NCBI GenBank assembly: GCA_951812955.1
Contig: OX638340.1
Location: forward strand, 3,392,001 to 3,456,000
Reading direction: 5' to 3'
Length of the DNA stretch: 64,000 bases
Source of the DNA: an uncultured Gemmatimonadota bacterium
Lineage (GTDB): Bacteria; JAAXHH01
Each line of letters starts with the position of its first letter. Positions within the stretch are counted from its first letter, which is position 1. Below are positions 1 to 14,248 of this stretch, one piece after another. A program made the translations under genes and the position numbers. The notes under the pieces were generated by a model. It had not been told where the DNA came from. It saw only the letters and a program-made list of their open reading frames with translations, and made no database searches.

Positions 1-899
1 GACGTGCACCGTTCCCCGTTCAGGCTGTAGATCATGAATACCGTGGCGTCCAGGGCCCGGTCCAGATCCGCGTCGGCGAAGACGACCACCGGGTTCTTGC
101 CGCCCAGTTCGAAGTGCACCCGCTTGAGCGTATCCGCGCCCTGCCGCATGATGGCGCGGCCGGTCCGCGTGTCGCCCACGAATCCGACGGCCTTGATGTC
201 CGGGTGCTCGGTGAGCGCCCGACCCGTGGTTTCGCCGATCCCGTTGACCACGTTGACCACACCCGCCGGCACGCCGGCCTCATGGACCAGTTCGGCCAGC
301 CGCATGGCCGTGACCGGGCTCCACTCCGCAGGTTTGTGTACCACCGTGCAGCCGGCCGCCAGCGCGGGCGCCATCTTCCAGGTGCTGAGCATGAAGGGCG
401 TGTTCCAGGGCGTGATGATGCCCACGGGCCCGATGGGCTGCCTCAGGGTGTAGTTCAGGTGCCCGGCCGTTGGAAGCGCGAGCCCGTCCGATGCGCTCTC
501 GGCGCGGTCCGCGAAGAACCGGAAGTTCTCGGCGGCGCGCGACGCGGCCTTGGACATGAAACGGATAGGCTGGCCCGTATCATAGGTTTCCAGCAGGGCG
601 ATCTCTTCGCCGTGTTCCTCGATCAGGTCGGCGACCCGGTGCAGCAGCCGTTTTCGTTCCGTCCCCGGGGTGTCCCGCCAGTCTTCGAAAGCCTCCGTTG
701 CCGCACGGGCCGCGGTGTCGATCACCTCCGGTCCACCGTTCGCGACGGTGCACAGGAAGGAATTGTCGACCGGCGTGGCGTTCTCTAAGGATGCGCCTCC
801 TGCGGCTGGGACGGAGGAACCGCCGATGAGATGGCCGATGCCCTGTTCGCGGAACCGGGCGATGTGCCGCTCCGCTTTCGCCTGGTTCGGATGATTCGC
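1..899 (-). CDS. Aldehyde dehydrogenase family protein (HpaE-like). The 3' end lies outside the window. The 5' end is uncertain: no canonical in-frame start was found near the expected N-terminus.
   Basis: Manual minus-strand translation in the codon frame where low coordinate is divisible by 3 gives GPVGIITPWNTPFMLSTWK, FELGGKNPVVVF and IYSLNGERCT. These are the hallmark ALDH motifs. The N-terminal region HLIGGSSV...NATPVD aligns to HpaE-type enzymes. The ORF runs off the window start, so it is absent from the ORF track. Confidence 0.8.
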
Positions 900-913
900 C
901 GTGGCCTGGATTG

Positions 914-1669
914 CTATGATGCATCCTCCTTCAGACCGTCCACCACGTCGTTTTGCAGTGCGCCCAGGCCGTCCACCTCCAGCCGGAGCCGGTCCCCCGC
1001 GTGGATGTGGGAAATGCCCTCCGGCGTACCCGACCAGATCATGTCCCCTGGGCTCAGGGTCATGTACGCGGTGATGTACTCGATGAGTTCGGCCACGCTG
1101 TGGCGCAGGTCGCCCGACCAGCCCTCCTGGCGGAGTTCGCCGTTGACGTAAGTACGCAGGTGAACGTCCGTGGGATCGATTTCGTCCGCGGTGGTCAGGA
1201 AGGGACCCAGGGGACCGAAGGTGTCGAAACCCTTGGCCTTGATCGGCGGCCTGAAATAGTTGCTCACGAAGTCCCGTATCGTCAGGTCGTTTCCAATGGT
1301 GTAACCGCCCACGTAGTCCAGGGCGTACTCGGCCTTTACCTTGCGCGCCGGACGGCCGATCACGGCGACAAGTTCGCATTCGTAGTGCAGGTAATCGAAC
1401 TCAGGCGGGACGACGATCTTCGCACGGTGTCCGATGAAGGTCTGGGGCATCTTGTTGAACAGGATGGGCTCTTCGGGCAGGTCCAGGTTCAGTTCCTTCG
1501 CGTGCTCCGTGTATCCCAGCGCGACCCCGATGGCTTTGCTCGTATGGTCCACCGGAGGCAGGAACATGACGTCCTCCGGATCGTAAGCGACCGTGCCCAC
1601 CATGAGCTGTCCGTCTTCGTACACGGCCTCGAGTACCTGGCCGTTACAGGCGAACCGTGCAGTCTTCAT
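914..1669 (-). CDS. Fumarylacetoacetate hydrolase (FAH) family protein (2-keto-4-pentenoate hydratase / diketo-acid hydrolase-like)
   Basis: 251 aa ORF. FAH-fold signature: ...GYTIGNDLTIRDF...GKGFDTFGPLGP... Confidence 0.85.
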   Translation of the reverse strand: MKTARFACNGQVLEAVYEDGQLMVGTVAYDPEDVMFLPPVDHTSKAIGVALGYTEHAKELNLDLPEEPILFNKMPQTFIGHRAKIVVPPEFDYLHYECELVAVIGRPARKVKAEYALDYVGGYTIGNDLTIRDFVSNYFRPPIKAKGFDTFGPLGPFLTTADEIDPTDVHLRTYVNGELRQEGWSGDLRHSVAELIEYITAYMTLSPGDMIWSGTPEGISHIHAGDRLRLEVDGLGALQNDVVDGLKEDAS

Positions 1670-1681
1670 TTATACCCTCCG

Positions 1682-2551
1682 TCACACGTCATACCACGTG
1701 TCCACGCTATGCTCCAGTTCACCCGGCCGGGAATACCGCGTTTCCATGTCCCGTATCGCGCGTTCCACTTCCGTCGCGGCGGGAACGAGATCCCGCTGGC
1801 CGGCCGACAGGTCATAGACCGACCGCCCTTCCGTGGCAAGGGGACTGTCCAGGTCGATCCTCCCCGAGGGCCTGTGCTTGAGCAGGACAGTATAGGTGGC
1901 GCAGTAAAGGTCGGGGTCGTAGGCGCAAGGGGCCGCTTTCCTATTTTCGTCCACCAGGCCGAACCGCGCGGCCACCTCGCACAGGTCTTCCCACAGCGCG
2001 TACATGATGCCGGGTTGGGCGTCGCCTTTCTCCCGCTCGTGCAGGGGGCTGGCGCTCCGCGCCTTGCGTTGCGCCTCGATGAGCTGCCTTACCTGCCGGG
2101 AGGGCGTGGGAATGCCGAAGAAGGTCGATGTCTCGTCCATGAGATGGGATTCGACCGGGTCCGCTTCCCGGCGGACCAGTTCCACCAGCCGGTTGCCGAT
2201 GAGCGGTGTTTCCCCGATGAGGATGTGGCGGTCCTCCCGGTGCCGTTCCGCCCAGTCTCCGACCGCGCGCCGGGCCCACATGCCGACGGCCTTGCGGACC
2301 CCGGCGTGGGTGATTCCGTCCTGTTCGTGATAATGTTCCTTCACCCGGGCGTTTGTCAAGAACGGCAGCCGGCAGACGTCCCATTGGAGCAGGTGGGGCG
2401 TCCTGCCGCGGCCGTAGGCCAGGATGGCCAGTTGCTGCAGCAGCAGGCTCTTGCCGGTGCCCGGGAGTCCGGCCAGAAAAACCATCTTGCGGGTGTCCAC
2501 CAGGCTCCGGAGGGTCTGATACAGTCCGCTGTCCTCGGGAATCAGTAGCAT
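1682..2551 (-). CDS. P-loop NTPase (AAA_33 / gluconokinase-like kinase fold), function unknown
   Basis: Begins MLLIPEDSGLYQ... Walker A motif VFLAGLPGTGKSLL. The track ORF 1682..3439 is an Arg-rich spurious upstream extension that runs antisense through the next gene; the real start is the internal Met at 2551. Confidence 0.65.
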   Translation of the reverse strand: MLLIPEDSGLYQTLRSLVDTRKMVFLAGLPGTGKSLLLQQLAILAYGRGRTPHLLQWDVCRLPFLTNARVKEHYHEQDGITHAGVRKAVGMWARRAVGDWAERHREDRHILIGETPLIGNRLVELVRREADPVESHLMDETSTFFGIPTPSRQVRQLIEAQRKARSASPLHEREKGDAQPGIMYALWEDLCEVAARFGLVDENRKAAPCAYDPDLYCATYTVLLKHRPSGRIDLDSPLATEGRSVYDLSAGQRDLVPAATEVERAIRDMETRYSRPGELEHSVDTWYDV

Positions 2552-2577
2552 TATCCAGCCGGGTCCGCAGTCTCGGC

Positions 2578-4257
2578 CTATCCCGGCCCGTCTCCTCTCA
2601 CCCTGGGGCCTCGCTTGAACCGGTCCGCGTCCGGCATCTCGCCTACCGGGATCTCCACCACGGTCGGTCCATCTTCGGCGAACCCTTCGCGTATCGCCTC
2701 GCCCATCTCGCCGGGCGTGTGCGCCCGTAACCCCCTGGCGCCGAAGGATTCGACCAGCTTGACGAAATCGGGATTCCGCAGGTCGGACGCGATAACCCGG
2801 TTGCCGTACTGTTCCTTCTGCATCCGTTTCACGTTGCCGTAGGCATTGTCGTTGAATACGAGCGTGACCAGTCCGATGCCGTGCTGCACCGCCGTGGCCA
2901 GTTCCTGCACAGCGAACATGAACCCGCCGTCGCCGGCGATCGCCAGGACCGGTTTGTCCGGATGGGCGACCTTGACACCCAGCGCCGTGGGAAATCCCCA
3001 GCCCAGGGTGCCCTGGTAACCGGTGGATATGAAAGTATAGGGTTTGTACACCGGCATAACCTGCCGGCTTGCGTAGCCGACCTGGGTCAGCTCTTCCACG
3101 AAGATGCCGTCGTCGCCCAGTTCTTCGCGGATGACCCGGAGATAGGCGGCCTGGGGTTCCAGGGCGGCTGCGAGTTTTTCGTCTGTTTCTTTTTTTAATG
3201 CCAGCATCTCGGTTTTTAATGACGGCCGTCGCCGGTTGTGCTTCTCGACCAGGGGTATCAGCTGAGGCAGGGCGTCTTCGGTACGCGCCGTGATGGGCAG
3301 GTCCGGCATGGCGATCCGGTCGTGGGCGGCGCGATCCGCATCGATGCGGACGATGGTCAGGTCCTCGTCCACGCCCCAATTGAGTTGCGGGATCTCCATT
3401 CTGGATCCCAGGGCGAGGGCGACGTCCACCTTCGGCCACAGCCGGTGTCCCGACGGGTTGGTGATACTCAGGTAGTGGCGGCTGTCCAGCACGCCCCGTC
3501 CGGTGCGGTAGCTGATGACTGGCGCCTGGAGCAGTTCGGCGAGTTGCCGGACTTCTTCGGAAACGTTCATGGCGCCGCGGCCGACGAAGATCATGGGGTT
3601 CTCTGCGCGGCCGAGGATGCGCGCGGCCTGCGCCAGCGCTTCCGTGTCAACCGGGTCGGGCGATATGGGCAGCGGACCGGGAATGCGGTCCACCCGTCCC
3701 CCGGTCGCCAGTACGTCCCAGGGGCATTCCAGTCCCACGGGGCGCGGCCTGCCCGAATTCAGTTGCCGGATGGCCTCTGCCGTCCTGGACGGCGCCCCGG
3801 CGGTGCTGTCGATCCGGGCGGACCACTTGGTCAGGGACCGCAGCACGCCGAGCTGGTCGTTGATCTCGTGCAACTGGCCGACTCCGCGGCCGATAAACCT
3901 GGAAGGGATCTCGCCGGTCAGGCACAGGACCTTCGCGTTGGTGGCGTAGGACGTGCACAGGGCGCCGGTGCTGTTGAGAAACCCCGGTCCGGGCACCACG
4001 TTGTAGACGCCGGCACGGTCTGTCGAGAGGGCATACCCCAGGGCCATGTAGCCCGCGCCCTGTTCGTGGCGGGTGTGGATTACCCGGATATGGTCGCGGT
4101 GGTCGAAGAAGGCGTTGTAGAGCGCGTCGTTCTGCACGCCCGGCAGGCCGAAGACCGTTTCGATCCCATGGGATATCAGGGTACGGACGATCGCATCGGC
4201 GGTAGTCATTTCCTGCATGGAAGTCGAGGGAGCGGTAACGGCCGCGCGGTCGGTCAC
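2578..4257 (-). CDS. Thiamine-pyrophosphate-dependent enzyme, acetolactate-synthase-like family
   Basis: 559 aa. N-terminal pyrimidine-binding domain (ADAIVRTLISHGIETVFGLPG) and C-terminal TPP motif IAGDGGFMFAVQEL...NDNAYG. The start may be an internal Met at 4218. Overlaps the upstream gene stop by 4 nt. Confidence 0.85.
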   Translation of the reverse strand: MTDRAAVTAPSTSMQEMTTADAIVRTLISHGIETVFGLPGVQNDALYNAFFDHRDHIRVIHTRHEQGAGYMALGYALSTDRAGVYNVVPGPGFLNSTGALCTSYATNAKVLCLTGEIPSRFIGRGVGQLHEINDQLGVLRSLTKWSARIDSTAGAPSRTAEAIRQLNSGRPRPVGLECPWDVLATGGRVDRIPGPLPISPDPVDTEALAQAARILGRAENPMIFVGRGAMNVSEEVRQLAELLQAPVISYRTGRGVLDSRHYLSITNPSGHRLWPKVDVALALGSRMEIPQLNWGVDEDLTIVRIDADRAAHDRIAMPDLPITARTEDALPQLIPLVEKHNRRRPSLKTEMLALKKETDEKLAAALEPQAAYLRVIREELGDDGIFVEELTQVGYASRQVMPVYKPYTFISTGYQGTLGWGFPTALGVKVAHPDKPVLAIAGDGGFMFAVQELATAVQHGIGLVTLVFNDNAYGNVKRMQKEQYGNRVIASDLRNPDFVKLVESFGARGLRAHTPGEMGEAIREGFAEDGPTVVEIPVGEMPDADRFKRGPRVRGDGPG

Positions 4258-5225
4258 AGGTCGATCCGGTACAGGGGCTCCTGCCCCCGCGCGATCCGGT
4301 CGGTATTCTCGGCGGCCGCGGCGGCCCGGCGGCGTGATGTACCGTCCGTCACGCCGGCGATGTGGGGCGTAGCCACCACGTTCGGCAACTGGTAGACGGG
4401 CAGCGTCGAATCCGGAGGTTCCTGCGCGAACACATCGAGGCCGGCGCCACCGATCTTTCCGGCAACAAGGGCATCGTAAAGGGCCGCCTCGTCCACCAGG
4501 GCGCCCCGCGCCACGTTGATAATGCTCGCCGTCGGTTTCATGCGGCCCAGTTGCCGCGCATCGATGATATGGCGGGTTTCGTCGTTCAGGTGCAGGTGCA
4601 GGGAGAGGAAGTCGCTTTCGGCCACGACCCGGTCGAGATCGGCCGGCGTACCCATGAAGTCGGGCTGAATGTCGTCTAGCACATCGGATTCGATCTCGCG
4701 GACGTCAATACCCATGATCCGCATGCCGAAAGGCTTTGCCCTCCGCGCCAGCGCCTGGCCGCTCGCGCCGAATCCGACGATGCCCAGCGTCTGGTTTTCG
4801 AGTTCGTAGCCGAGCGGTCCGTAGAGTTGCCCCTCGCGGAAGTACTCCACCGCTTCCCGGTACCGCCTGGACAGCATGATCACGAACATCATGGCCGTTT
4901 CGGCCAGGGCGACGTCGCTGAAGAGTCCGGGCGTATTGGCCGTCGGGATGCCCTTCGTCTTGATATAGGACAGGTCGAAATTGTCGAAGCCCGTTCCCAC
5001 GATCTGCCACAGCCTGCAGTCGGTCGCGGCGTCCATCATTTCCCGCGTGCCCCGGCTGCCGCCCTGGTCGATCACCACGTCCATGCCGGCGAATTGCGGC
5101 GCCAGGGGCAGGTCGTCGTCGAGTTCCTTCAGTTCGTGCCGATCGCCGAGTGCCGCCTTGATGTTGTCGCACCATGGGGAGTAGATACGGCGCACGGGCA
5201 GCAGGATAACGTTCAGTCGATCCAT
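4254..5225 (-). CDS. D-isomer-specific 2-hydroxyacid dehydrogenase, NAD-binding
   Basis: 323 aa. Rossmann motif GIVGFGASGQALARRA and a catalytic region typical of the D-2-HADH family. Confidence 0.85.
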   Translation of the reverse strand: MDRLNVILLPVRRIYSPWCDNIKAALGDRHELKELDDDLPLAPQFAGMDVVIDQGGSRGTREMMDAATDCRLWQIVGTGFDNFDLSYIKTKGIPTANTPGLFSDVALAETAMMFVIMLSRRYREAVEYFREGQLYGPLGYELENQTLGIVGFGASGQALARRAKPFGMRIMGIDVREIESDVLDDIQPDFMGTPADLDRVVAESDFLSLHLHLNDETRHIIDARQLGRMKPTASIINVARGALVDEAALYDALVAGKIGGAGLDVFAQEPPDSTLPVYQLPNVVATPHIAGVTDGTSRRRAAAAAENTDRIARGQEPLYRIDL

Positions 5226-5234
5226 GTGAATTCC

Positions 5235-6107
5235 TCAATCCCCTTCTGGCTGATTTTCGATCAGGTCATCCACCGCCGCCGTATCCTGCACGTCGGTCCG
5301 GAACACCCAGGTGCCGTTCTTCACGTAATGTACCGCGAAAGCCAGGCGGGACCGGGTACGGGAACGGTTGGCGTAGGACCCGTGCACGGTCCTGCTGGTA
5401 AAGAACACGCCGCTGCCGCGGGGGACCGTCAACCGGACGAGGTCTTTTTCTTCTATGCCCACGACGTCGAAGGAGTAGAGTTTCTCGGTCCATTCGCGGC
5501 CGTCCGGCGAGCGCATGCCGTATTCACTCTCCCAGCTTACGTGCTCCGGATTGGTGTTCAGGCTCGTTTCGCGCAGGGCGTCCTTGTGGCTCCCCGGCGC
5601 CACGCACAGTCCGCCGTTCTCCGGGTCCGTATCGCTCATGGCGATCCAGCAGGCCATGAGGGTATCGGGTTCGTTGGGCAGGTAGTGGGAGTCCTGGTGA
5701 AGGGATATGCCGGCATCGCCCAGTTCTTCGCCCGGCCCGGCCGGTTGCTTGGCCATGTACATGGACTGCACGATGCGTGGCCGTCCGCCCAGGATCTGCG
5801 CGGCGACTCCCGCGACGTTCGGATGGGTGGCGAGTCCGCGCCAGTACGGATCGGATAGATGGGTACGGAGCCCTTGCCTCAGGGATTCTGCTTCCGGATC
5901 CGCCTGGTGACGCAGGAACGCTTCCACCTCGTCCGCAGACAGCAGGTCCGGGACGACGAGATAGCCATCCGCGTGAAACTGTTCGAGCTGCGTATCCTTA
6001 AGCTGGATGGGGGTGGTTTCCTTCGGCATGTTCGGCGGGACCTCACTGGATTCGAACGAAGGGATTGGGTCCGGGGAACTACATGCGCATGAGTCTGAAA
6101 CAATCAA
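5235..6107 (-). CDS. Phytanoyl-CoA dioxygenase (PhyH) family Fe(II)/2-oxoglutarate dioxygenase, paralog 1
   Basis: PhyH-like N-terminus (EQFHADGYLVVPDLLS) and an HxD iron motif (HQDSHY). The likely start is the internal Met at 6029. Confidence 0.8.
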   Translation of the reverse strand: MIVSDSCACSSPDPIPSFESSEVPPNMPKETTPIQLKDTQLEQFHADGYLVVPDLLSADEVEAFLRHQADPEAESLRQGLRTHLSDPYWRGLATHPNVAGVAAQILGGRPRIVQSMYMAKQPAGPGEELGDAGISLHQDSHYLPNEPDTLMACWIAMSDTDPENGGLCVAPGSHKDALRETSLNTNPEHVSWESEYGMRSPDGREWTEKLYSFDVVGIEEKDLVRLTVPRGSGVFFTSRTVHGSYANRSRTRSRLAFAVHYVKNGTWVFRTDVQDTAAVDDLIENQPEGD

Positions 6108-6179
6108 CTAAAGAAAACGGCCCGGAGAAGGCCGGTCAAGGAGTATGTCCCGGCCAGCCACCGCCGCGAATGCCGGACG

Positions 6180-7229
6180 CTACAACTGGTTGAGCAGCAT
6201 CAGTTCGCCGGGAAAGGGATGGAGGTAGGTCTGGTCTTTCAAGTAGGCGATGTCGAATTCGCGGACGTAGTGCCGCAGCATGACGACCGGGACGATCAGC
6301 GGGAGCAATTCCTCCCGGTAATTCTGAATCATGCGGGTCAGTTCCCGCCGGGTACGGCTGTCGAGCCGGTCGGAAACGTAGCCCGCCATGTGTTGCAACA
6401 CGTTGGTGTGGTTCCGCCGTGACGGGGTTCGTTTCATGACCGAGTTGAATTCGTCCAGGTAGGCATTCGCCAGGGCCTGGGTGGTCGCAAATCGTTCCGG
6501 TTTCGCCAGCAGCCGGCCGAGGCGGCGGGTGCCCTCCTGGCTGTGGGCCATGAGCAAGTACTTGTAGGCCCGGTGATATCCCATCAGCGATTCCCTGGTC
6601 AGGCCCGTAGTGACCAGTTGCAGCCAGCGGTAATAGGCGAACACCCGGCTGATGAAGTTCTCCCGGATCCTGAGGTTGTGCAACCGCTGCTCTTCTTCCA
6701 CCGGCAGATGGGGGAGGACTTCCATCAACCGGCGGGCGAATATGCCCCGCCCTTTTTTAAGTGTGGCGCCATCGGGCTGGACGACGGGTACGCGCTCCTT
6801 GCCGCAGGAGGGGGATCGGCTTTTCAGGATGTATCCGCTGAGCCTGGCCTGCTCCAGGGTCTGAACACGCTGCCGGGCGAACCAGTCCACCACGTCCGTG
6901 TGGTCGACGCCCGCCTTGGTCAGCATCCGGATGTCGCCGTCGACCCGCGTCAGCTGCACCGTCTCCCGCGGCATGCCCATGCCCGCCTCCACTTCCGGAC
7001 ATACCGGGACCCACTCCACGTACCGGCCGACCACGTCCACCAGGTAGTCGTCCCGTTTGTGCCCGCCGTCGTAGCGGACTCTCTCGCCGAGCAGGCAGGA
7101 GGAGATACCGATGCGCACGGGCAATTCGGCCCGGTGAATATCCAGCAGGGGTATTTCGCTCGAGGAAGTCCCGCCAAATACCGATTCGCTCATGATTCGT
7201 CCATTATGCTCTTCGCATTGCGGTTTCAC
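6180..7229 (-). CDS. DUF523 (TudS-like [4Fe-4S] desulfidase fold) fused to DUF1722 (YbgA-like)
   Basis: N-terminal GISSCLLGERVRYDGGHK...CPEV Cys pattern of DUF523, then a DUF1722-like C-terminal half. The likely start is Met at 7193. Confidence 0.7.
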   Translation of the reverse strand: MKPQCEEHNGRIMSESVFGGTSSSEIPLLDIHRAELPVRIGISSCLLGERVRYDGGHKRDDYLVDVVGRYVEWVPVCPEVEAGMGMPRETVQLTRVDGDIRMLTKAGVDHTDVVDWFARQRVQTLEQARLSGYILKSRSPSCGKERVPVVQPDGATLKKGRGIFARRLMEVLPHLPVEEEQRLHNLRIRENFISRVFAYYRWLQLVTTGLTRESLMGYHRAYKYLLMAHSQEGTRRLGRLLAKPERFATTQALANAYLDEFNSVMKRTPSRRNHTNVLQHMAGYVSDRLDSRTRRELTRMIQNYREELLPLIVPVVMLRHYVREFDIAYLKDQTYLHPFPGELMLLNQL

Positions 7230-7243
7230 TCATGATGCGCTCG

Positions 7244-7990
7244 CTACCATCGGTCGATGGCTCCGAGAAGCAGTTTCTGTTCCTTCGTTCCCTTTTCCCG
7301 TATGGCCGTCACCCGGGGTCCGTCGAAGGGTTCCCTGGACTTCATCCAGGCGTTCTGGTAGCACATGAGGCAGACACGGCGGTTCCGTTCCGACTGGTTG
7401 GCGGCCCCGCGGTGAAACAGCCAGCCGTCGAACAGGACGGCCTGTCCCGGCCTGGCCAGCACGTGTTTTTCATCGGGGAACCGGGCATGCGTCTCCGGCG
7501 GCTTGAAGGGCGCCCTGTGGCTGCCAGGCACGATGACGATAGGACCGTTCTCCATGGTCAGCTGGTCCAGGTAATATCCGCAGTTGACCTGTCCCGGCTC
7601 GTTGCCGTAAGGCGGCGGTTCCGGGTCTTTGGGCCAGGGAATGTCCCGGTGCCAGTTCTGGTCCGGCTCCCCGGGTTTAGTCACCCGCGCCGTCGCGCTG
7701 TGCAACTGCACGCAATTGCCCAGGATGGCCTTCATACGGTCCAGGACGGGCGGGTTGTCGAGGAGGAAGGCGAACCGGTCGTCTTCCTCAAGGAGTTGGT
7801 GCGTGAAGGACTCGCCGCGCCGCTGGTAGGTCTCGTCCAGGGCGTCCCGGAGCTGTTCGACCTGCGGGACGGTCAACGCGTCCTCCACCACGAGATAGCC
7901 CCACTTCCTGAAGAAGGCGGCTTCCCGTTCCAGTTCCGGCGTCAGGTCCGGATTCATCCGCGGACCGACGATTTCGGCGTCATATCCCAT
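7244..7990 (-). CDS. PhyH-family Fe(II)/2-oxoglutarate dioxygenase, paralog 2
   Basis: 248 aa. WGYLVVEDAL... and a WHRD iron-binding motif. Confidence 0.8.
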   Translation of the reverse strand: MGYDAEIVGPRMNPDLTPELEREAAFFRKWGYLVVEDALTVPQVEQLRDALDETYQRRGESFTHQLLEEDDRFAFLLDNPPVLDRMKAILGNCVQLHSATARVTKPGEPDQNWHRDIPWPKDPEPPPYGNEPGQVNCGYYLDQLTMENGPIVIVPGSHRAPFKPPETHARFPDEKHVLARPGQAVLFDGWLFHRGAANQSERNRRVCLMCYQNAWMKSREPFDGPRVTAIREKGTKEQKLLLGAIDRW

Positions 7991-8064
7991 AGGTATCCCT
8001 GGTCGGTCGCGCGCCTGCTGGCCGGCACGACCTCCGGCACGCTACACGCCGTCCGCTCGCGACA

Positions 8065-9189
8065 TCAGAAGAAGCCGAGGTCTTCCCGGGCCGCCCGACG
8101 GGCCGTCTCCTCGTCCAGCGTCACACCCAGGCCCGGCTTCATGGGCAGGTCGATGTGCCCGTTCCGGATCAGGTCTCTTTCCACCGTCAGCGTATTCCAA
8201 ACTTCGTTGTCCAGGTGATGGAATTCGAGCACCTGGAAGTTGGGCACCGCCGCGCACAGGTGACACACGGCCACCGTGCCGATGGGTCCACAGATGTTGT
8301 GGGGCGACAGGGGGATGTAGTACATGTCCGCCAGGTCGGCGATTTTCCGGCCCTCGAGCAGTCCACCCGCCTTGGCGTGATCGGGCGAGATGATGTCCGC
8401 CGCCTGCGCCTCGATGAGGTCCCGGAATCCGTGGCGCGTGTAGAAGTTCTCCCCGGTGCAGATGGGGACGCGGGTAGCCTGGGTCACTTTCGCCATGGCC
8501 TCGATGTTCTCCGGCGGCACGGGATCCTCCAGCCACATCAGGTCCAGGTCCTCGCAGGCGTAAGCCACCTTGAGTATGTCCACCGGGGCGTAATTCCAGT
8601 GGGCGTCGATGAGCAGGTCGGTATTGGGGTTCAGCGAATCCCGAAGTGCGGTGATGACGTCAATGAAGAAGGCCACGTCGTCGTTGCTGATGGTCCGGTT
8701 GTACCGGTCCCGCCGGTTCGGCCGCGGATCGATGTCGAACTTGATGGCGTCGAAGCCGCGTGCTTCAACGGCCCGGGCTTTCTCCACATAGGCTTCCGGC
8801 GTCTCGTCATCCCCTGCGTGGCAGTCGTTGTAAACGCGGATGCGGTCCCTGAACTTGCCGCCGAGCAGTTGCCAGATGGGCACGCCGCAGGCCTGTCCCG
8901 TGATGTCCCACAGGGCCATTTCAATCCCGCTGATGGCGCTCATGACCGCGCCCTGGTAGAAACCGGACGCCGACATGGAAGACATCATGTCGTGGAAGAG
9001 CTTGTCCACGTTCCGCGGGTCCTGGCCGATGAGCGCCCGGTCCCGCAGCCTCGGGTCGGTGACGATCTGGTGGACCCCGGCGCCGTGATAGGCTTCGCCG
9101 ATGCCGACCAGCCCCTCGTCGGTTTTGACTTTTACCAGTACCCAGGGCATGGGCTGGAGCAGCACGGCCCCCACGTGTGTGATTTTCAT
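8065..9189 (-). CDS. Enolase-superfamily (mandelate racemase / muconate lactonising enzyme) sugar-acid dehydratase-like protein
   Basis: Starts MKITHVG..., then GIGEAYHG, ALWDI, PIWQLLGG and KFDIDP. The pattern resembles D-mannonate/galactonate dehydratases. The track ORF extends 28 aa further upstream to 9273. Confidence 0.8.
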   Translation of the reverse strand: MKITHVGAVLLQPMPWVLVKVKTDEGLVGIGEAYHGAGVHQIVTDPRLRDRALIGQDPRNVDKLFHDMMSSMSASGFYQGAVMSAISGIEMALWDITGQACGVPIWQLLGGKFRDRIRVYNDCHAGDDETPEAYVEKARAVEARGFDAIKFDIDPRPNRRDRYNRTISNDDVAFFIDVITALRDSLNPNTDLLIDAHWNYAPVDILKVAYACEDLDLMWLEDPVPPENIEAMAKVTQATRVPICTGENFYTRHGFRDLIEAQAADIISPDHAKAGGLLEGRKIADLADMYYIPLSPHNICGPIGTVAVCHLCAAVPNFQVLEFHHLDNEVWNTLTVERDLIRNGHIDLPMKPGLGVTLDEETARRAAREDLGFF

Positions 9190-9327
9190 TTGGACTCCAT
9201 GACTGCCTGACTGCCGGACAATGGGTTCCCACGCTTCGCCCGCCCGATCCTCAAAGGTGCGAACGCGGTACACTAAAGACGCAAGCGCGGTACACTACAG
9301 CACGAGCGCGGTACATTCAGTAACCGA

Positions 9328-9939
9328 TCATTGCATCCTGGTCAGCGCGTCCCGGGCATTGAGATAGGGTACGGATCGCTCCAGGAACGTTTCAACCAGG
9401 TGACCGGGCGTGAGTTCGGAAGTATCGATGTCGAACTTTCGTTTGATCCAGGACTGCGCGACTTCCTCTTCGAACCGTTCCAGGACGTGCGGCACGTCCT
9501 CCGATGGAACCAACTGGCGTGGATGGGGATCCTGCTCCATGCGCCGCCGGATCACCTCGGGACGTGCGTGAAGATGGACCAGGATCGCGTCGCCGGGCAT
9601 GTCCGGTTCGTACTCACGCACCGCGATATTGATCCCCGGATAATAGTAACAGGGACCGTACACCATCTCCTCGATATGGAACCCGCCCAGGAGGATGTGG
9701 TCGAACTTGTGCATCAGCCGGACGTGGTACACGATCTGGAACCGCTGAAACCGTTCCTTTATGGCCGGCAGCATGTCGATGAAGCCCTGCTGCTCCTCCT
9801 CGTCGAGGTGGTAGGCGTCCGGGATGGTGAAGTGGTCGTCCAGGTGGTGATGAACGCCCCGCTCGTTCCCCCAGTTGTAGAGGCCGTCGATCAGCGTCGT
9901 GACCCCCGAGTATTCGCAGCCTGCGGCGATCAACCGCAT
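9328..9939 (-). CDS. Hypothetical protein. The N-terminal AGCEYSGVTTL resembles a sulfotransferase/P-loop PAPS-binding motif, but this is weak.
   Basis: 203 aa ORF with balanced composition, set inside a tightly spaced co-directional gene array. No confident family assignment. Confidence 0.5.
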   Translation of the reverse strand: MRLIAAGCEYSGVTTLIDGLYNWGNERGVHHHLDDHFTIPDAYHLDEEEQQGFIDMLPAIKERFQRFQIVYHVRLMHKFDHILLGGFHIEEMVYGPCYYYPGINIAVREYEPDMPGDAILVHLHARPEVIRRRMEQDPHPRQLVPSEDVPHVLERFEEEVAQSWIKRKFDIDTSELTPGHLVETFLERSVPYLNARDALTRMQ

Positions 9940-9970
9940 GGACGCTCCTTTCGTCGATATCGGAATGGTT

Positions 9971-11089
9971 TCAATCCAGTTCCTCGTAAGCCTGCGTATA
10001 CCGCTGCAGCGCGTCGTAATCCAGGTCGCAACCCAGTCCCGGCTTCATTGGCGTGGGCACGTGGCCGTCGACAAAGGTAATGGGTTCGAGGATCAGGTCG
10101 TCCTCCCGGGTCCACCCGCCGACGAAATCGGACGCCATGGTGCAGTTCGGCGCCGCGGCCGCGGCATGGACGAAGGAGGTGTCCGAAATCCCCAGGTCGT
10201 TTCCCGATCCGTGCCAGCACGGGAGTCCGGCCGAGGCGGCCGTGGCGGCATTGCGCTGGAAGCCGAACATGCTGCCACCCAGGTTTACGCAATCCACCAC
10301 GCCCCGGCCCCCGTCGGCCTGCAGGGCGCGGACCACGCCCGGCCCGTCTCCCAGGTGCATGGCCAGGGGGAAAGGGATGGCCCCGTGGATCTCTTCGTAA
10401 CCCTCGATATCGGACTTGGGTATGGGGTCCTCGAACACCTCCACGTTTCCCAGCGGTTCGAGGCGCCCCGCCAGTTCGATGGTCTGCGCGGCGGTGTAGA
10501 ACCGTTCGTTGGGGTCCACGGTCACCTTGAATCCGGGCCCCGCCACGTCGCGCATGGCCTTCAGGCGCTCGTACATGGGTTCCTCGAGCCGGCACTTGAT
10601 CTTGACCCCCGTAAACCCTTGCCGCATCCCTCGTTCCACGGCCCTGGCGCCGTCCTCCGGCGTCTGGTGGCCCATCCAGTAATCGGCGCGGACACGGTCG
10701 CGGACGGCGCCTCCGAGCAACGCATGCACGGGCAGTTCGCGGACCCGTCCCACGAGGTCCAGCACGGCCATCTCGAAGGCGTCGTACGCCGGACCGGTAC
10801 CTACCGTGATGTCGTCGGCCGCCCTTTCGGCCCGCCGTCCGAAGATATCCTGCGGGGCCACGTCCTCGGGGTCGCGGCCGATCAGCAGCGCCGCGCCTTC
10901 CCTGACCTCCTCGATGGGTACGCCGCGCCAGGTCTCCCCGATGCCCGAGAACTCGGTGTCCGTATCGACACGGATGATGTGCTTCGGGACCTCGTCCCAG
11001 CCGGCCTTCGCAGCGTATTCAGGGCTGTGGACGCGGCCCGGTATGGTGGGTACGACGACGGTCCAGACTGCAACGGATGTGATCTTCAT
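9971..11089 (-). CDS. Enolase-superfamily (MR/MLE) dehydratase-like protein, second paralog
   Basis: 372 aa. MKITSVAV... with the capping/barrel organisation of the MR/MLE family. Confidence 0.75.
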   Translation of the reverse strand: MKITSVAVWTVVVPTIPGRVHSPEYAAKAGWDEVPKHIIRVDTDTEFSGIGETWRGVPIEEVREGAALLIGRDPEDVAPQDIFGRRAERAADDITVGTGPAYDAFEMAVLDLVGRVRELPVHALLGGAVRDRVRADYWMGHQTPEDGARAVERGMRQGFTGVKIKCRLEEPMYERLKAMRDVAGPGFKVTVDPNERFYTAAQTIELAGRLEPLGNVEVFEDPIPKSDIEGYEEIHGAIPFPLAMHLGDGPGVVRALQADGGRGVVDCVNLGGSMFGFQRNAATAASAGLPCWHGSGNDLGISDTSFVHAAAAAPNCTMASDFVGGWTREDDLILEPITFVDGHVPTPMKPGLGCDLDYDALQRYTQAYEELD

Positions 11090-11122
11090 CCAGGACTCCC
11101 TGTTTGGGGCGAAAACGTCGCT

Positions 11123-12316
11123 TCAGTTGTTCCGCCACCCTGCGATAAAAGTGTCCACATTCAGGCAGGACGGCATTTCCTCGAAGTAGTAGTGCATGGG
11201 GTCCGACTGAAACCCTGGCACGTACTGTACGGTTTCTGATTGCACCATGCCGTCGAGTGGGGCGAAGCGCTGCCAGAGGGTGTCCAGTTCGCCGTCGGCA
11301 AACCGGGGTTTCAGGTCCTCGTCGTGCGATATGTCGCTGCCGTAGTGCGGCCGGACGGGATGTGCGGAGAACTTCATCTTGTAGACAATCTTGGACAGGA
11401 GCACGACGCACACGATACGCCCGATCTCGCCGGGGTGCAGCGCGGCAAGGCCTTCCTGGAAAGCGTCCTCGTCCCGGCCGATGACGGCGCGGAAAATGGA
11501 CTCTATCAGGTCTGACTCCTCGTCATACCTGCGCTTGACGTCCTCGAAAACGGCCTGCAGATCGGAGGGCAGGCATTCGGTGAAGGAGAGATCCCTGAAG
11601 GTGCGGTTGACGTAGGGGAAGATCGGACCGCCGTAGGACCGGTAGCCCAGGTGGATGGTGCGCCTCATCCGGGCGCTGTAATTGCTCCCCCAGTGCAGGA
11701 TCGTATTGGTATAGACCACCCCGTCGCCCGCATTCAACTCGACCTGGACGGCGCCGGGCAGTACCTCGCGGGGATTCCGTCCCAGGCAGCGGTTCTCTTC
11801 GGCCGTGTTCCCCCGTTGATGACTCTTCGGCACGACCCAGAGCACGTTGTCATCGTAGAGCGGGATGTTCCACTGGAGATAACCGGGGGCGTTGTGCAGC
11901 AGGTCATCCTGCAGGCCCCTGAGCGGCGCCTGGTCGATGGGATGTATGTCCCGGTGCCACGCCGCCGGACCGTGGTCTTCCACCGGGTTGCACATGAAGA
12001 AGAAACCGGTGTTTCCCGCGGCTTTCGCGTTCATGATGCGCCGGCTGACCCCCATGGTATGCTCGTGCAGGCCGAAGGCCATGGTATTGGCCGTGTCCTC
12101 GTCCACGAGGGATTCGAAGTTCAGCCGGGGCTGGGAACTGACCGCCCACTGGCCTCCGGGCGGATCGTCCGGTTTCCTTTCCCTGGCCCAGATTTCCTTC
12201 TGACGATCCACCATGCGCTCGAAGCTGTCCCTTAACGGGTCTAGCCAGTCAGGGGGAACCACCCCACGAAGCACGATGAAACCGTCTTCGAACAGTTTCC
12301 GAGGATCGAAATTCAT
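11123..12316 (-). CDS. PhyH-family Fe(II)/2-oxoglutarate dioxygenase, paralog 3 (long form)
   Basis: 397 aa. AAWHRDIHP iron motif and PhyH-like core. Confidence 0.75.
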   Translation of the reverse strand: MNFDPRKLFEDGFIVLRGVVPPDWLDPLRDSFERMVDRQKEIWARERKPDDPPGGQWAVSSQPRLNFESLVDEDTANTMAFGLHEHTMGVSRRIMNAKAAGNTGFFFMCNPVEDHGPAAWHRDIHPIDQAPLRGLQDDLLHNAPGYLQWNIPLYDDNVLWVVPKSHQRGNTAEENRCLGRNPREVLPGAVQVELNAGDGVVYTNTILHWGSNYSARMRRTIHLGYRSYGGPIFPYVNRTFRDLSFTECLPSDLQAVFEDVKRRYDEESDLIESIFRAVIGRDEDAFQEGLAALHPGEIGRIVCVVLLSKIVYKMKFSAHPVRPHYGSDISHDEDLKPRFADGELDTLWQRFAPLDGMVQSETVQYVPGFQSDPMHYYFEEMPSCLNVDTFIAGWRNN

Positions 12317-12599
12317 GTAAGGTTTACCGCAAAAAGATGCGACGCGGGACGATGCCCGCGCCGTAGAACAGGGTTAACGTTCAATCTACATCGGCCCATG
12401 GGAATGTCAAGAGTGGGAAGACACAAATTGCGTCTTTGTTTGACTCTGAGCCGGCACCGCCCTGAGACTGCCGCGTGGACGGGTATTTCGTCTTGCAGGA
12501 AGCCCGCCGCGAAATTAGATTACGGTCCTGTAATTCAATAAACCCTGGTCCGGTTCGTTTCCACGAATACCGGTTTTCTTCCTTGTCGACGGAGTGCTC

Positions 12600-13205
12600 A
12601 TGGCGGTCCAGAAAGACTGGTGCCGGTTTGTCCTGCTGCTCATCGACGTCCAGCGGGATTTCTGGCCGGAGGAGACGGCCGAGTCTTTCCCCGATTTCCC
12701 GTCGAACGTCGAACGGCTGCTCGAATATTGCCGCGTTTCCGGTCTCGACGTCGTCCACGTGCGTGCGGATTTCGAACCGGACGGATCGGACTGGATGACG
12801 CCCTATCGGATTAAGGGGGAAACACCCTGCATACGCGGCACGCGGGGTGTGGAGGTGCTGCCCTGCGCCATGGAAATGGACGGCGAACCCGTCCTGCGCA
12901 AGCGGACCTTCGACGCCTTCCTTCAGCCGGACCTATTATCCCGTTTACATCGTGCGCGTAAATCCTATATACTGATTGCGGGACTTGAGACCTCCGTCTG
13001 CGTGCTTCTTACCGCTGCTTCCGCCGTACAGCACGGGTTCCTGGCCGCGGTCGTCGCGGACTGCTGCGCCGACGATCCCGCCAGGCACGAGGCGGTGGTA
13101 AACGGATATCCCTTCATGTTTGACCGCACTACCCTCGCCAGGCTCGAAACCGACCACGACCGCTGGATGGACATGCTGAACAAGCTGCAGCATGCCGGAG
13201 GATGA
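12600..13205 (+). CDS. Isochorismatase-family cysteine hydrolase
   Basis: [12 protein letters not shown]... is typical of the isochorismatase fold. GGAG lies 5 nt before the ATG at 12600. The track start at 12594 is an upstream GTG. Confidence 0.75.
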
Positions 13206-14248
13206 CCGTGAACCATTTGAATGTAGGGATCGTCGGCCTCGGCTGGGTGGCCGGGGCGCACATCGACGCCTTCAAGGCCGTGACCGGGGCCGACGTTACC
13301 GCCGTATGCTCCCGGAGGAACCATGACGACGCGGAACTTTCCGCGCAGTTCGGCACGCCGCTGAAGTCCTGTGTCGATTATGGCGATCTGCTCGCCGATC
13401 CCGACGTCCACGTGGTCGACATCTGCACGCCCCACCCCTTCCACGCCGACCAGGCCGTGGCCGCCGCGGAGGCCGGCAAGCATCTCATCATCGAGAAGCC
13501 CATTGCCCTGACTCCCACGGACGCCGTGCGCATCCAGTCCGCCGTCGAGAAGGCCGGGGTGTGTGTCTGCGTCTGTTTCGAATGCCGGTACAGCGCGCAC
13601 TTCACCATGATCCGGTCCGTCATCGACCAGGGGCTGCTCGGTGATCTACACTACGCCGAAGTCGACTACTACCATGGCATTGGTCCCTGGTACGGGCAGT
13701 ACGGCTGGAACGTGAAAAAGGACATGGGCGGGTCCAGCCTGCTGACGGCGGGGTGCCACGCCCTGGACGCCCTTCTGTTCTTCATGGACGGCAAGGTGGA
13801 GGAAGTCACCAGCTACAGCACGAAGTCCTCCAGCCCCCACTTCGCGCCGTACGAGTACGATACCACGAGTGTTTCCATCCTGAGATTCGAGGGCGGCAAG
13901 CGGATCGGCAAGGTGACCTCCAGCATCGACTGTCTGCAGCCCTACTATTTCCACGTGCACCTGGTAGGTAGCGAAGGAAGCCTGCTGGACAATCGGTTCT
14001 ATTCGCATAAGCTCGATGGTCTGGACCGCAGCCGTTGGAGCACGCTCGAGACCTCCCTGATCGATTCGGGCGACGTCCAGGATCACCCTTACGAACCCCA
14101 GTTCCAGGCCTTCGTCGACAGTATCAACGGAGGCGGACCCATGCCGCTCACGGACATGCATACCGCCTACGAGTCGCACCGCGTCGTCTTCGCGGCCGAC
14201 CGTTCAGCTGCGGAGGGCCGGTCTGTGCGCCTGGACGAGGTGGACTAG
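13202..14248 (+). CDS. Gfo/Idh/MocA-family NAD(P)-dependent oxidoreductase
   Basis: [17 protein letters not shown] Rossmann N-terminus. Overlaps the previous gene by ATGA. Confidence 0.8.

Follow-up and report, generated by a model that had tools for sequence, protein, structure and literature searches.

A putative aromatic-acid catabolic unit that combines a TPP enzyme with a kinase-like P-loop protein in an uncultured Gemmatimonadota bacterium

Gene content of the locus

The window, by which we mean the whole 64-kb stretch of DNA that was analyzed, begins with five co-directional genes on the minus strand that follow a gene for a PhyH-family oxygenase (PhyH1) with a gap of 9 nt, as described in the first-pass annotation (Table 1). 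The family-level names given there (2-hydroxyacid dehydrogenase, ALS-like TPP enzyme, P-loop protein, FAH-family enzyme and HpaE-like aldehyde dehydrogenase, ALDH) were all correct. Four of the five families were confirmed with Pfam at E-values from 1e-33 to 1e-95, the P-loop protein being the one without an above-threshold match. Each of the five proteins also has counterparts in 12 related genomes, at 60-98% identity, which marks the genes as real and not as chance open reading frames (ORFs) in GC-rich DNA. The mechanically called ORF of the P-loop protein spans 1682-3439, the real start being the ATG at 2551; from there the protein measures 289 aa rather than the 290 aa first assigned to it, while the reported GLPGTGKS motif is present. 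Likewise, the mechanical ORF of PhyH1 runs to 6107, and the relatives call a protein of 263-264 aa starting at MPKE. Its translation shows the His-x-Asp (HQD) of a facial triad. For the ALDH gene no in-frame ATG, GTG or TTG start was found, and an AAGGAGG-N7-ATA arrangement ahead of it is conserved in 13 genomes; an ATA at 917-915, overlapping with the stop codon of the FAH gene, probably serves as its start.

Table 1. Features of the 12-gene array, listed in the direction of transcription.
Feature	Position	Strand	Remarks
PhyH	11123-12316	minus	upstream module
MR_MLE	9971-11089	minus	upstream module
203-aa protein of unknown family	9328-9939	minus	upstream module
MR_MLE	8065-9273	minus	upstream module
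PhyH	7244-7990	minus	upstream module
2-thiouracil-desulfurase/DUF1722	6180-7229	minus	upstream module
Conserved intergenic element (candidate)	6101-6144	minus	in the 150-nt gap from the YbgA-like gene to PhyH1
PhyH-family Fe(II)/2-oxoglutarate oxygenase (PhyH paralog 1, PhyH1)	5235-6029	minus	Pfam PhyH E = 6e-30
D-2-hydroxyacid dehydrogenase, D-isomer-specific, GRHPR/PGDH-like	4254-5225	minus	323 aa, ATG at 5225
TPP enzyme, ALS-like, PRK08266 subfamily	2578-4257	minus	559 aa, three TPP domains
P-loop protein, Walker A GLPGTGKS	1682-2551	minus	289 aa, predicted kinase-like fold
FAH-family enzyme, predicted HpaG/HpcE type, single-domain	914-1669	minus	251 aa
Predicted HpaE-type ALDH, N-terminal ~305 codons, cut at window edge	1-917	minus	

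A conserved element in the 12-gene array

Together with PhyH1 and an upstream module (6180-12316), whose families were assigned from Pfam and NCBIfam, the five genes form an array of 12. With the gene starts of the relatives, the successive gaps are 33, 31, 138, 74, 50 and 150 nt, then exactly 9 nt (PhyH1 stop at 5235 to dehydrogenase ATG), -4 nt (dehydrogenase stop overlapping the TPP-enzyme start), 26 nt (TPP enzyme to P-loop gene) and 12 nt (P-loop gene to FAH gene), followed by an overlap. The tight spacing noted earlier is borne out, and these values are close to the range of 9-140 nt given for it. The largest gap contains an element with the structure ACTCCTTGACC - variable GC hairpin - GTTTTCTT(A/T)NGTTGATTG, which includes a -35-like box, a hairpin and a T-run and was listed as terminator-like. 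It is present in the window and in all 12 clade relatives, its hairpin having a dG of -5.5 to -13 kcal/mol in 11 of the 13, and it is unique in the window (0 expected by chance). An insertion of 2.3 kb in one relative (L015) has not separated the element from PhyH1. We regard the element as a candidate promoter/operator and/or weak terminator that probably divides the array. The transcription unit to which the five genes belong probably opens with PhyH1. The full array was found at 12 loci of one Gemmatimonadota/Latescibacterota clade and at none of 75 loci of other lineages, and other phyla keep only the part with the TPP enzyme, the P-loop protein and the hpa genes. This distribution, along with the element in the largest gap, speaks against the single 12-gene super-operon suggested in the first-pass annotation, which had itself named internal promoters or terminators as evidence that would split the array; the element is a candidate for such a signal.

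Predicted homoprotocatechuate enzymes

The FAH-family protein scores 282.4 bits on the HpaG C-terminal model TIGR02303, a margin of only 6 bits over the cut-off of 276.4, and its best relatives of solved structure are, over the full length, the HpcE proteins of Escherichia coli (PDB 1gtt, E = 1e-80) and Thermus (1wzo, E = 4e-77). A member of its 90% cluster is named '2-hydroxyhepta-2,4-diene-1,7-dioate isomerase' in one source. The protein is accordingly predicted to be of the HpaG/HpcE type (OPET decarboxylase/HHDD isomerase of the homoprotocatechuate pathway). The ALDH matches Pfam Aldedh at E = 3e-95. Only 305-306 codons of about 509 in relatives are visible in the window, and this half-length fragment scores 439.5 bits over positions 1-279 of the HpaE model TIGR02299; the full-length ortholog in L001 (95% identical) reaches 760 bits, well over the cut-off of 638. 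These scores identify the ALDH as HpaE, 5-carboxymethyl-2-hydroxymuconate semialdehyde dehydrogenase. In relatives whose P-loop protein is 72-94% identical, the next gene past window position 1 is HpaD. It lies directly downstream in L001 and L002, with 379.5 and 408.7 bits on TIGR02295 (cut-off 321.4). By these model matches, the FAH enzyme, the ALDH and HpaD are the meta-cleavage enzymes for homoprotocatechuate (3,4-dihydroxyphenylacetate), and the earlier proposal that the first two resemble the terminal steps of diketo-deoxy-sugar-acid cleavage is not supported.

The orthologs pass the curated models and occur in the same G-E-D order as in the E. coli operon hpaGEDFHI/hpcECBDGH and the corresponding Thermus operon, the differences being that the present locus has only a single-domain HpaG and that the trio is preceded by the 2-hydroxyacid dehydrogenase, the TPP enzyme and the P-loop protein, which the classical operon lacks. 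None of HpaF, HpaH, HpaI and HpaBC is encoded anywhere in the 64-kb window, and without the first three the locus holds just part of the lower pathway. Within the Gemmatimonadota/Latescibacterota clade, no ring hydroxylase was identified.

The TPP enzyme and the 2-hydroxyacid dehydrogenase

The TPP enzyme scores 732.8 bits on NF006122 (cut-off 571). Its second-best model, which represents the nearest named family, is the AruI-type 5-guanidino-2-oxopentanoate decarboxylase (342 bits). It belongs to the uncharacterised PRK08266 subfamily, and from the gene context we infer a 2-oxo-acid decarboxylase acting on an arylpyruvate-type substrate. Orthologs with 58-62% identity adjoin P-loop genes in Chloroflexota. 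The dehydrogenase matches Pfam 2-Hacid_dh_C at E = 1e-54 and reaches no equivalog cut-off (glyoxylate reductase, 191 bits versus 455); its best PDB matches are glyoxylate/hydroxypyruvate reductases, and hydroxyphenylpyruvate reductase 3ba1 is matched at 6e-28. In other lineages the place that the dehydrogenase takes here, ahead of the TPP gene, often belongs to a HisC-like aminotransferase. The AruH-AruI-KauB arginine transaminase pathway of Pseudomonas aeruginosa consists of an aminotransferase, a TPP-dependent 2-oxo-acid decarboxylase and an ALDH, and the co-linear HisC-like aminotransferase, TPP enzyme and ALDH at many loci of the present family match its logic. Unlike AruI, the TPP enzyme is of the PRK08266 subfamily, has a P-loop partner and would act on an aromatic substrate; in the window, the 2-hydroxyacid dehydrogenase replaces the aminotransferase.

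The P-loop protein and its partners

We agree with the first-pass annotation that the P-loop protein is the odd one out of the set. Its description as AAA_33-like did not hold, as no match to AAA_33, Zeta_toxin or gluconokinase was obtained even at E ≤ 10; a toxin match, which would have counted against the earlier reading, was thus not found. The AF2 model has a pLDDT of 92.7 and gave no Foldseek match at E ≤ 1e-3; by our own reading, the insert between strands 2 and 3 resembles an NMP-binding domain. Within the family alignment, Walker A, D58, R61, E114, R121 and the H171/E174 segment are invariant, and the family profile aligns to APS kinase over the P-loop plus the DGDxxR region (E = 2e-5). 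Compared with APS kinase CysC, NMP kinases, gluconate kinase and chloramphenicol phosphotransferase, the protein is only 10-21% identical, matches no family model and is about 100 residues larger. Judged by the structural model and these alignments, it represents a distinct, uncharacterised family with a predicted NMP/APS-kinase-like P-loop fold.

The claim that the protein has no obvious partner role is not supported, since at 32 loci, 20 of them outside the clade, its gene comes immediately after a TPP gene of this subfamily. In total, a PRK08266-type TPP enzyme was found within 10 kb of the P-loop gene at 47 of 87 loci (on the same strand at 43), and the directly adjacent pairs have a median gap of 12.5 nt. 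This TPP enzyme is the conserved partner of the P-loop protein in many phyla. At 8 of the 11 same-strand but non-adjacent loci, the intervening genes include an HD or YfcE-like phosphoesterase, and fusions of the P-loop protein to HD (P0140) and Metallophos_2 domains (P0179) also occur; the 64-kb window has no phosphoesterase partner. In cultured Aquimarina atlantica (L069), a single same-strand run encodes HpaH, HpaI, HpaG, HpaE, HpaD, CHMI, a StyD-like phenylacetaldehyde dehydrogenase, the TPP enzyme, a YfcE-like phosphoesterase, HisC and the P-loop protein. It should be noted that none of the partners is present at 20 of 40 well-flanked loci outside the clade, which means that the link of the P-loop family to the pathway is not a strict one.

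Proposed pathway and alternatives

We consider it reasonably likely that positions 1-5225 form the middle of an aromatic-acid catabolic unit in which a 2-oxo-acid decarboxylase route leads into ring cleavage, with a putative small-molecule kinase. The unit would probably run from PhyH1 through the dehydrogenase, TPP enzyme, P-loop protein, hpaG and hpaE to hpaD and onward, and looks like tyrosine/DOPA-type aromatic-acid breakdown rather than sugar-acid degradation. The translationally coupled dehydrogenase would convert an aryl-lactate to the 2-oxo acid that feeds the TPP enzyme, a role that in other phyla may fall to the HisC-like aminotransferase acting on an amino acid. From an arylpyruvate (of the 4-hydroxy- or 3,4-dihydroxyphenylpyruvate type) the TPP enzyme would produce an arylacetaldehyde, which would enter homoprotocatechuate meta-cleavage via HpaG, HpaE and HpaD. 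The P-loop protein is most likely an ATP-dependent phosphotransferase acting on a small molecule at the TPP-enzyme step, and the HD or YfcE-type phosphoesterases of other lineages could reverse or complete that step. The substrates of both proteins are suggested by context.

Alternatively, the P-loop protein might belong to a kinase/phosphatase switch, of which it would be one half, for the reversible phosphorylation of a protein; the neighboring TPP decarboxylase is the most plausible target. Such a switch would resemble AceK, or the kinase and phosphatase of PDH/BCKDH E1, in logic but not in ancestry. The order TPP enzyme, phosphoesterase, P-loop protein indeed recurs with two unrelated phosphoesterase folds, both also found fused, the pathway chemistry needs no phospho-intermediate, and weak matches in sequence and fold include the P-loop bacterial tyrosine kinases BceF and VpsO. 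However, those matches are no better than the ones to nucleotide or APS kinases, the window's clade also lacks the phosphoesterase, and outside the clade half of the well-flanked loci have no TPP gene nearby, which makes such a switch unlikely. T4 and bacterial Pnkp and PFK-2/FBPase-2 differ in that the P-loop protein has a metabolic/aromatic context without an RNA-repair ligase or Hen1, and stands alone in the window, where the bifunctional enzymes include a phosphoesterase.

The P-loop protein might also be an NTP-driven, SIMIBI-like accessory or maturation factor for its partners that loads or repairs their cofactors or metal centres, which would be ThDP/Mg for the TPP enzyme, haem for SfmD-like proteins and dimetal sites for HD or Metallophos enzymes. 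Such a role would fit the weak MeaB Pfam matches of several homologs and the fact that every fusion partner is a cofactor-dependent enzyme. We find this improbable, as the alignment has no deviant Walker A, NKxD or G3E ExxG motif, the WD..R after strand 2 aligns to the catalytic DGD..R of APS kinase, and one chaperone is not expected to serve haem, dimetal and ThDP sites alike.

It is quite unlikely that the TPP enzyme is instead a carboligase or C-C hydrolase in the style of ALS, ScyA or IolD, in a biosynthetic or non-aromatic module that has hpa genes as coincidental catabolic-island neighbors. Its best PDB matches are acetolactate synthases (2.7e-61), with BbmA, CsmA and glyoxylate carboligase also listed, and at a set of Chloroflexota loci, several from sponge-derived MAGs, the neighbors of the TPP/P-loop pair are a GFO_IDH_MocA oxidoreductase and two unknown proteins but no hpa genes. 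Against this, hpa genes recur beside the pair in Gemmatimonadota, Chloroflexota, Rhodothermaceae, Acidobacteria and Aquimarina, the combination of an aminotransferase, the TPP enzyme and an ALDH resembles the established AruH/AruI/KauB pathway, and the StyD-like ALDH directly upstream of the Aquimarina TPP gene points to an aldehyde product.

Very unlikely, finally, is a single operon of all 12 genes in which the FAH enzyme, as a 2,4-diketo-3-deoxy acid hydrolase, and the ALDH, as a semialdehyde dehydrogenase, complete a non-phosphorylative sugar-acid pathway that starts with the upstream MR_MLE dehydratases: two enolase-superfamily genes lie upstream, one of them scoring 258 bits on galactonate dehydratase, the array order is kept in 12 relatives and the FAH enzyme matches 2,4-didehydro-3-deoxy-L-rhamnonate hydrolase (156 bits) and PDB 8gsr (1e-34), but the former score is far under its cut-off of 500 whereas HpaG-C-term passes, the galactonate dehydratase score is also below its cut-off of 311, the ALDH is HpaE and followed by HpaD, the conserved element interrupts the array, and outside the clade the FAH, HpaE and HpaD genes accompany the TPP/P-loop pair but in no case the MR_MLE genes.

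A P-loop paralog of Chloroflexota carries a fused SfmD-like domain, and the next ORF (185 aa) is homologous to the C-terminal half of SfmD/TyrH tyrosine hydroxylases (E = 1e-14 to SfmD), including an HxxxC motif; SfmD-like proteins are absent from the window. The known haem-dependent tyrosine hydroxylases SfmD and LmbB2 are biosynthetic (saframycin, lincomycin) and not catabolic (PMC8179489, PMC3851162). The likeness to SfmD and LmbB2 (TyrH) would fit a conversion of Tyr to DOPA upstream of the same TPP/hpa module, with the difference that the Chloroflexota enzyme appears to be split, its other part being the one fused to the P-loop paralog.

A homoprotocatechuate ring-cleavage trio follows the P-loop gene

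The first-pass annotation placed five co-directional genes on the minus strand at positions 1-5225 and likened the last two to the end of a diketo-deoxy-sugar-acid pathway. The five gene models were borne out by their coordinates, by Pfam matches for four of them (E = 1e-33 to 1e-95) and by conservation of all five proteins in 12 related genomes, and the 9-nt spacing between the PhyH stop (5235) and the 2-hydroxyacid dehydrogenase gene proved to be exact. The G+C content of this DNA is 62-67% and shadow ORFs are numerous, and it is the homology evidence that tells the real genes apart from them. The P-loop gene lies within a mechanical ORF at 1682-3439, and its true start is the ATG at 2551. 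The 2-hydroxyacid dehydrogenase has the catalytic and NAD-binding Pfam domains of its superfamily above gathering score, and reached no specific NCBIfam equivalog. Apart from the P-loop protein, the enzymes encoded here are ordinary.

Features of the array discussed in the text (window coordinates)
Feature	Position	Strand	Observation
Aldehyde dehydrogenase	~917 to beyond window edge	-	HpaE match (fragment)
FAH/aldehyde dehydrogenase junction	914-930	-	AAGGAGG, 7 nt, then ATA
FAH-family protein, 251 aa	914-1669	-	HpaG-C-term match
P-loop protein, 289 aa	1682-2551	-	GLPGTGKS present; 26 nt past TPP stop
TPP enzyme, 559 aa	2578-4257	-	dehydrogenase stop overlapped by 4 nt
D-2-hydroxyacid dehydrogenase, 323 aa	4254-5225	-	PF02826 185 bits, PF00389 51 bits
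PhyH paralog 1	5235-6029	-	
Intergenic element	6101-6144		ACTCCTTGACC, variable GC hairpin, then GTTTTCTT..GTTGATTG; T-run present
YbgA-like protein	6180-7229	-	2-thiouracil desulfurase domain + DUF1722
203-aa protein	9328-9939	-	weak shikimate-kinase-like match, residues 117-187
Leader of first array gene (PhyH, ATG 12316)	12340-12410	-	TTGACA-16-TAGATT, then 9-bp GC hairpin + T-run

The sugar-acid assignment did not hold for either of the last two genes. The FAH-family protein passed the curated equivalog cut-off of TIGR02303 (HpaG-C-term), albeit by a narrow margin (282.4 versus 276.4 bits), and its closest solved relatives are the HpcE proteins of E. coli (1gtt, E = 1e-80) and Thermus (1wzo, E = 4e-77, full length). 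It is accordingly classed as HpaG/HpcE C-terminal type, with predicted OPET decarboxylase / HHDD isomerase activity. An assignment as 2,4-didehydro-3-deoxy-L-rhamnonate / L-2,4-diketo-3-deoxyrhamnonate hydrolase (NF053535) was rejected, the score being 156.3 bits against a cut-off of 500. The aldehyde dehydrogenase gene, which overlaps the FAH stop codon, is represented in the window by 306 of about 509 residues; this fragment scored 439.5 bits over positions 1-279 of the 488 of HpaE (TIGR02299), for which the full-length cut-off is 638.35. Gene content past position 1 was read from two related loci, L001 (94%-identical, on a 3.85-Mb contig) and L006 (72%-identical). In both, a full-length HpaE (in L001 a 95%-identical ortholog with 760.1 bits against the same cut-off) is followed by a 331-aa extradiol dioxygenase that passes the HpaD model (379.5 versus 321.4 bits), and then by an amino-acid permease, one or more sulfatases, another PhyH protein, kynureninase and a flavin monooxygenase. 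Given these matches and this gene order, the FAH and aldehyde dehydrogenase genes are the first two of an hpaG-hpaE-hpaD homoprotocatechuate ring-cleavage trio, which sits within an aromatic amino-acid catabolic region. This reassigns to aromatic-acid ring cleavage a gene block that is conserved in Gemmatimonadota and Latescibacterota MAGs, several of them derived from sponges or corals. Genes for HpaF, HpaH, HpaI, HD-domain or YfcE proteins were not found in the 64-kb window.

The start of hpaE is unusual. There is no in-frame ATG, GTG or TTG near the N-terminus, and the ATA that follows the AAGGAGG sequence overlaps the FAH stop (as ATAG or ATAA) in 13 of 13 clade genomes (the window, L001, L006 and L008-L017), which suggests a conserved AUA start or coupling by termination and reinitiation. 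Gene callers shorten HpaE, to 418 aa in the case of L001.

Throughout the clade of the window, the genes that come after the block encode the amino-acid permease and either one sulfatase or two. Judging by the record titles, symbionts of sponges or corals are the source of several MAG loci that carry the P-loop family (L008-L017, L038-L039, L057, L075, L082), and these belong to the Gemmatimonadota, Latescibacterota, Chloroflexota and Gammaproteobacteria. Together, these observations hint that the aromatic substrate comes from the host and may be sulfated.

The TPP enzyme as a putative arylpyruvate-type decarboxylase

The TPP enzyme matched NF006122 (PRK08266), a subfamily labelled 'hypothetical protein', with 732.8 bits (cut-off 571), and contains the N, M and C domains PF02776, PF00205 and PF02775. 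Its orthologs in other phyla are 49-62% identical. Acetolactate synthase large subunit was rejected as an identity, with 277 bits against 538 for TIGR00118 and every ALS equivalog below its cut-off. Among named families AruI comes nearest, which serves as decarboxylase in an arginine pathway composed of aminotransferase, decarboxylase and aldehyde dehydrogenase. A HisC-like aminotransferase gene is present in 22 of the 87 loci collected for the P-loop family, usually just upstream of the TPP gene, in the slot that the 2-hydroxyacid dehydrogenase gene occupies in the window; either enzyme, acting ahead of the TPP enzyme, would yield a 2-oxo acid. In the cultured Aquimarina atlantica the full set forms one same-strand run, encoding HpaH, HpaI, HpaG, HpaE, HpaD, CHMI, a StyD-like phenylacetaldehyde dehydrogenase, the TPP enzyme, a YfcE-like phosphoesterase, HisC and the P-loop protein. 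From the proximity to AruI, the preceding gene for a 2-oxo-acid-forming enzyme and the phenylacetaldehyde-dehydrogenase-like gene directly upstream in Aquimarina, we infer that the TPP enzyme is a 2-oxo-acid decarboxylase. The less likely alternative is that it catalyzes chemistry other than decarboxylation.

Since HpaD, HpaE and HpaG lie downstream, the simplest route would end in ring cleavage: an aryl-lactate or aromatic amino acid would be converted to an arylpyruvate, then to an arylacetaldehyde and to homoprotocatechuate, followed by cleavage of the ring. Such a pathway would be a variant of the classical hpa system, from which it differs by its ThDP-dependent entry, and it would assign the PRK08266 subfamily a function open to testing, that of an arylpyruvate-type decarboxylase that supplies homoprotocatechuate cleavage. 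The complete operon in a cultured organism, Aquimarina atlantica, opens this hypothesis to direct genetics and enzymology. Our literature searches on the gene cluster, on a link between SfmD and the P-loop protein, and on an arylpyruvate decarboxylase route to homoprotocatechuate retrieved no relevant paper, and none describing the P-loop family.

An unannotated P-loop family with a specific partner

The P-loop protein had been described in the first-pass annotation as AAA_33-like and lacking an obvious partner role, and neither description was upheld; the toxin match that the annotation named as refuting its own reading was not obtained. Nothing scored above threshold in Pfam, NCBIfam or PADLOC, and AAA_33, Zeta_toxin and gluconokinase (SKI) were absent from the Pfam matches even at E <= 10. 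The sub-threshold matches were AAA_16, nSTAND3 and AAA_30 only, and cover largely the Walker A region. Given the lack of any match of this kind and the metabolic gene context, a zeta-toxin or defence function was rejected. The 564 homologs, of about 282-300 aa, carry no functional names, being labelled 'hypothetical protein' or left unnamed, with one 'predicted kinase'. With 384 members found when a profile was run against 1.84 billion representatives clustered at 50% identity, this is a small family with sharp limits. When 45 members were aligned, 41 columns proved invariant, among them G28-S35 (Walker A), Q56, D58, R61, E114, R121, H171 and E174.

The AlphaFold2 model is of high confidence (pLDDT 92.7, pTM 0.91), and Foldseek gave no match to the PDB at E <= 1e-3. 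The sole sequence-level link is to APS kinase (E = 2e-5), where Walker A and the following LLDGD..R align with LLQWD..R of the P-loop protein. As in P-loop NTPases of the kinase type, the protein has a Rossmann-like alpha/beta core, a Walker A GxxxxGK[ST] motif and an acidic residue that follows strand 2 or 3. Judged from the order of secondary structure elements and the motifs, the fold is probably of the NMP/APS-kinase type; a putative acceptor-binding insert would separate strand 2 from strand 3, and the H171/E174 motif would sit on a lid.

Neighbours in the 87 loci were scored by tblastn and de novo ORF clustering. The commonest partner was the TPP enzyme. Its gene is found within 10 kb in 47 loci; in 43 the two genes share a strand, and in 32 of these it immediately precedes the P-loop gene (median gap 12.5 nt). 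Of these 32 loci, 20 lie outside the clade of the window. Among the other 11 same-strand loci, 8 have a phosphoesterase gene in between, which encodes an HD-domain protein in 5 loci and a YfcE-like metallophosphoesterase in 4, two of the latter with HisC as well. The pair is accompanied by HpaE-like, FAH and HpaD genes in 32, 28 and 25 of the 87 loci, respectively, and the loci with such hpa genes include Gemmatimonadota, Chloroflexota, Rhodothermaceae, Acidobacteria and Aquimarina. The partners are absent from 20 of 40 well-flanked loci outside the clade, mainly in Rokubacteria/Methylomirabilota, and the upstream neighbours in loci without the TPP gene were heterogeneous, with no common family. 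An unannotated family that spans many phyla with a specific conserved partner and has informative fusions is the part of this region worth following up.

The TPP/P-loop pair has a different context in a group of Chloroflexota loci, of which several belong to MAGs from sponges: hpa genes are absent, and two conserved proteins (about 118-179 aa and about 268-291 aa, both lacking a Pfam or PDB match) and a GFO_IDH_MocA oxidoreductase follow (L038, L039, L057, L059, L060, L075, L087; one family is missing in L065, L067 and L079).

Fusions and a possible phosphotransfer step

The representative library contains fusions of the P-loop protein with an HD domain (P0140) and with a Metallophos_2 domain (P0179). 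In Chloroflexota, a second paralog (41% identical) carries a fused SfmD_perox-like domain. The next ORF, of 185 aa and with an HxxxC motif, is related to SfmD in the C-terminal half of the latter (E = 1e-14), and also to haem-dependent tyrosine hydroxylase. SfmD and LmbB2 hydroxylate tyrosine (PMC8179489, PMC3851162). It appears that an SfmD/TyrH-like haem hydroxylase is split in two ORFs in Chloroflexota and Rhodothermaceae loci (L002:8002-9925, L003:8032-9936, L019, L021-L025, L055), its first part residing on the C-terminus of the P-loop paralog and its second being the 185-aa ORF with the haem-linking HxxxC.

Taken with the SfmD-like domain of the haem tyrosine-hydroxylase family, the phosphoesterase fusions point to a missing phosphotransfer step. 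Based on the kinase-type fold and motifs and on the repeated pairing or fusion with two unrelated phosphoesterase folds, an arrangement reminiscent of Pnkp and PFK-2/FBPase-2, the P-loop protein is most likely a phosphotransferase that acts on a small molecule tied to the TPP-enzyme step. Less likely alternatives are a protein kinase/phosphatase switch acting on the TPP enzyme and an NTP-driven maturation factor.

A bolder reading is rather unlikely in our estimation, namely that the protein is a new kinase of a phenolic or catecholic intermediate or, together with the phosphoesterase, an as yet undescribed switch on the ALS-like ThDP decarboxylase. As a new kinase, it would transiently phosphorylate a tyrosine-, DOPA- or arylpyruvate-type intermediate; the phosphate would shield the oxidation-prone, toxic catechol aldehyde route during transamination and ThDP-dependent decarboxylation, and an HD or YfcE-type phosphoesterase would strip it ahead of extradiol ring cleavage. 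Either form, if true, would give a textbook aromatic pathway an additional, phospho-dependent layer.

Organization of the 12-gene array

The first-pass annotation suggested that the 12 genes from 12316 to 1 may form one super-operon. Their order is intact in the 12 Gemmatimonadota/Latescibacterota loci, down to 60% identity of the P-loop protein, and in none of the remaining 75, which retain the TPP/P-loop/hpa part alone. The largest gap in the array (150 nt) separates the stop of the YbgA-like gene (6180) from the likely start of PhyH paralog 1 (6029). It contains an element that is conserved in 13 of 13 genomes and unique in the window. Its hairpin is weak to modest, with energies of -5.5 to -13 kcal/mol and z values from -0.1 to -2.7. 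The element remains with PhyH paralog 1 in L015, where 2.3 kb of inserted DNA part it from the YbgA-like gene. We read the element as a candidate promoter/operator of a unit starting at PhyH paralog 1, which would divide the array, and possibly also as a terminator of low strength. Overall, the generic search for terminators performed at chance level (10 found, 9.6 expected), and an Rfam scan of positions 1-13500 found no RNA family. The -35-like box of the element recurs as CTCCTTGACC at 60998, within coding sequence, and this copy was put down to chance. The insertion in L015 is of low G+C content (approximately L015:6450-8800).

The best sigma-70-like match of the scan precedes the first array gene, and the hairpin that follows it may belong to an attenuator-like leader or else terminate the gene that comes before. 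A halogenase function for PhyH paralog 1 was ruled out by its His-x-Asp (HQD) iron-binding motif.

The 203-aa protein is conserved (79-96%) in 12 of 12 clade relatives. It had no Pfam or PADLOC match, and its sole NCBIfam match was shikimate kinase (20 bits against 204). Its N-terminus, AGCEYSGVTT, resembles a degenerate Walker A without the lysine, and this protein could be the second P-loop member of the array, in an inactivated or atypical form. The YbgA-like gene keeps its position between the oxygenase and dehydratase genes throughout the clade, and fits oddly in a catabolic array.
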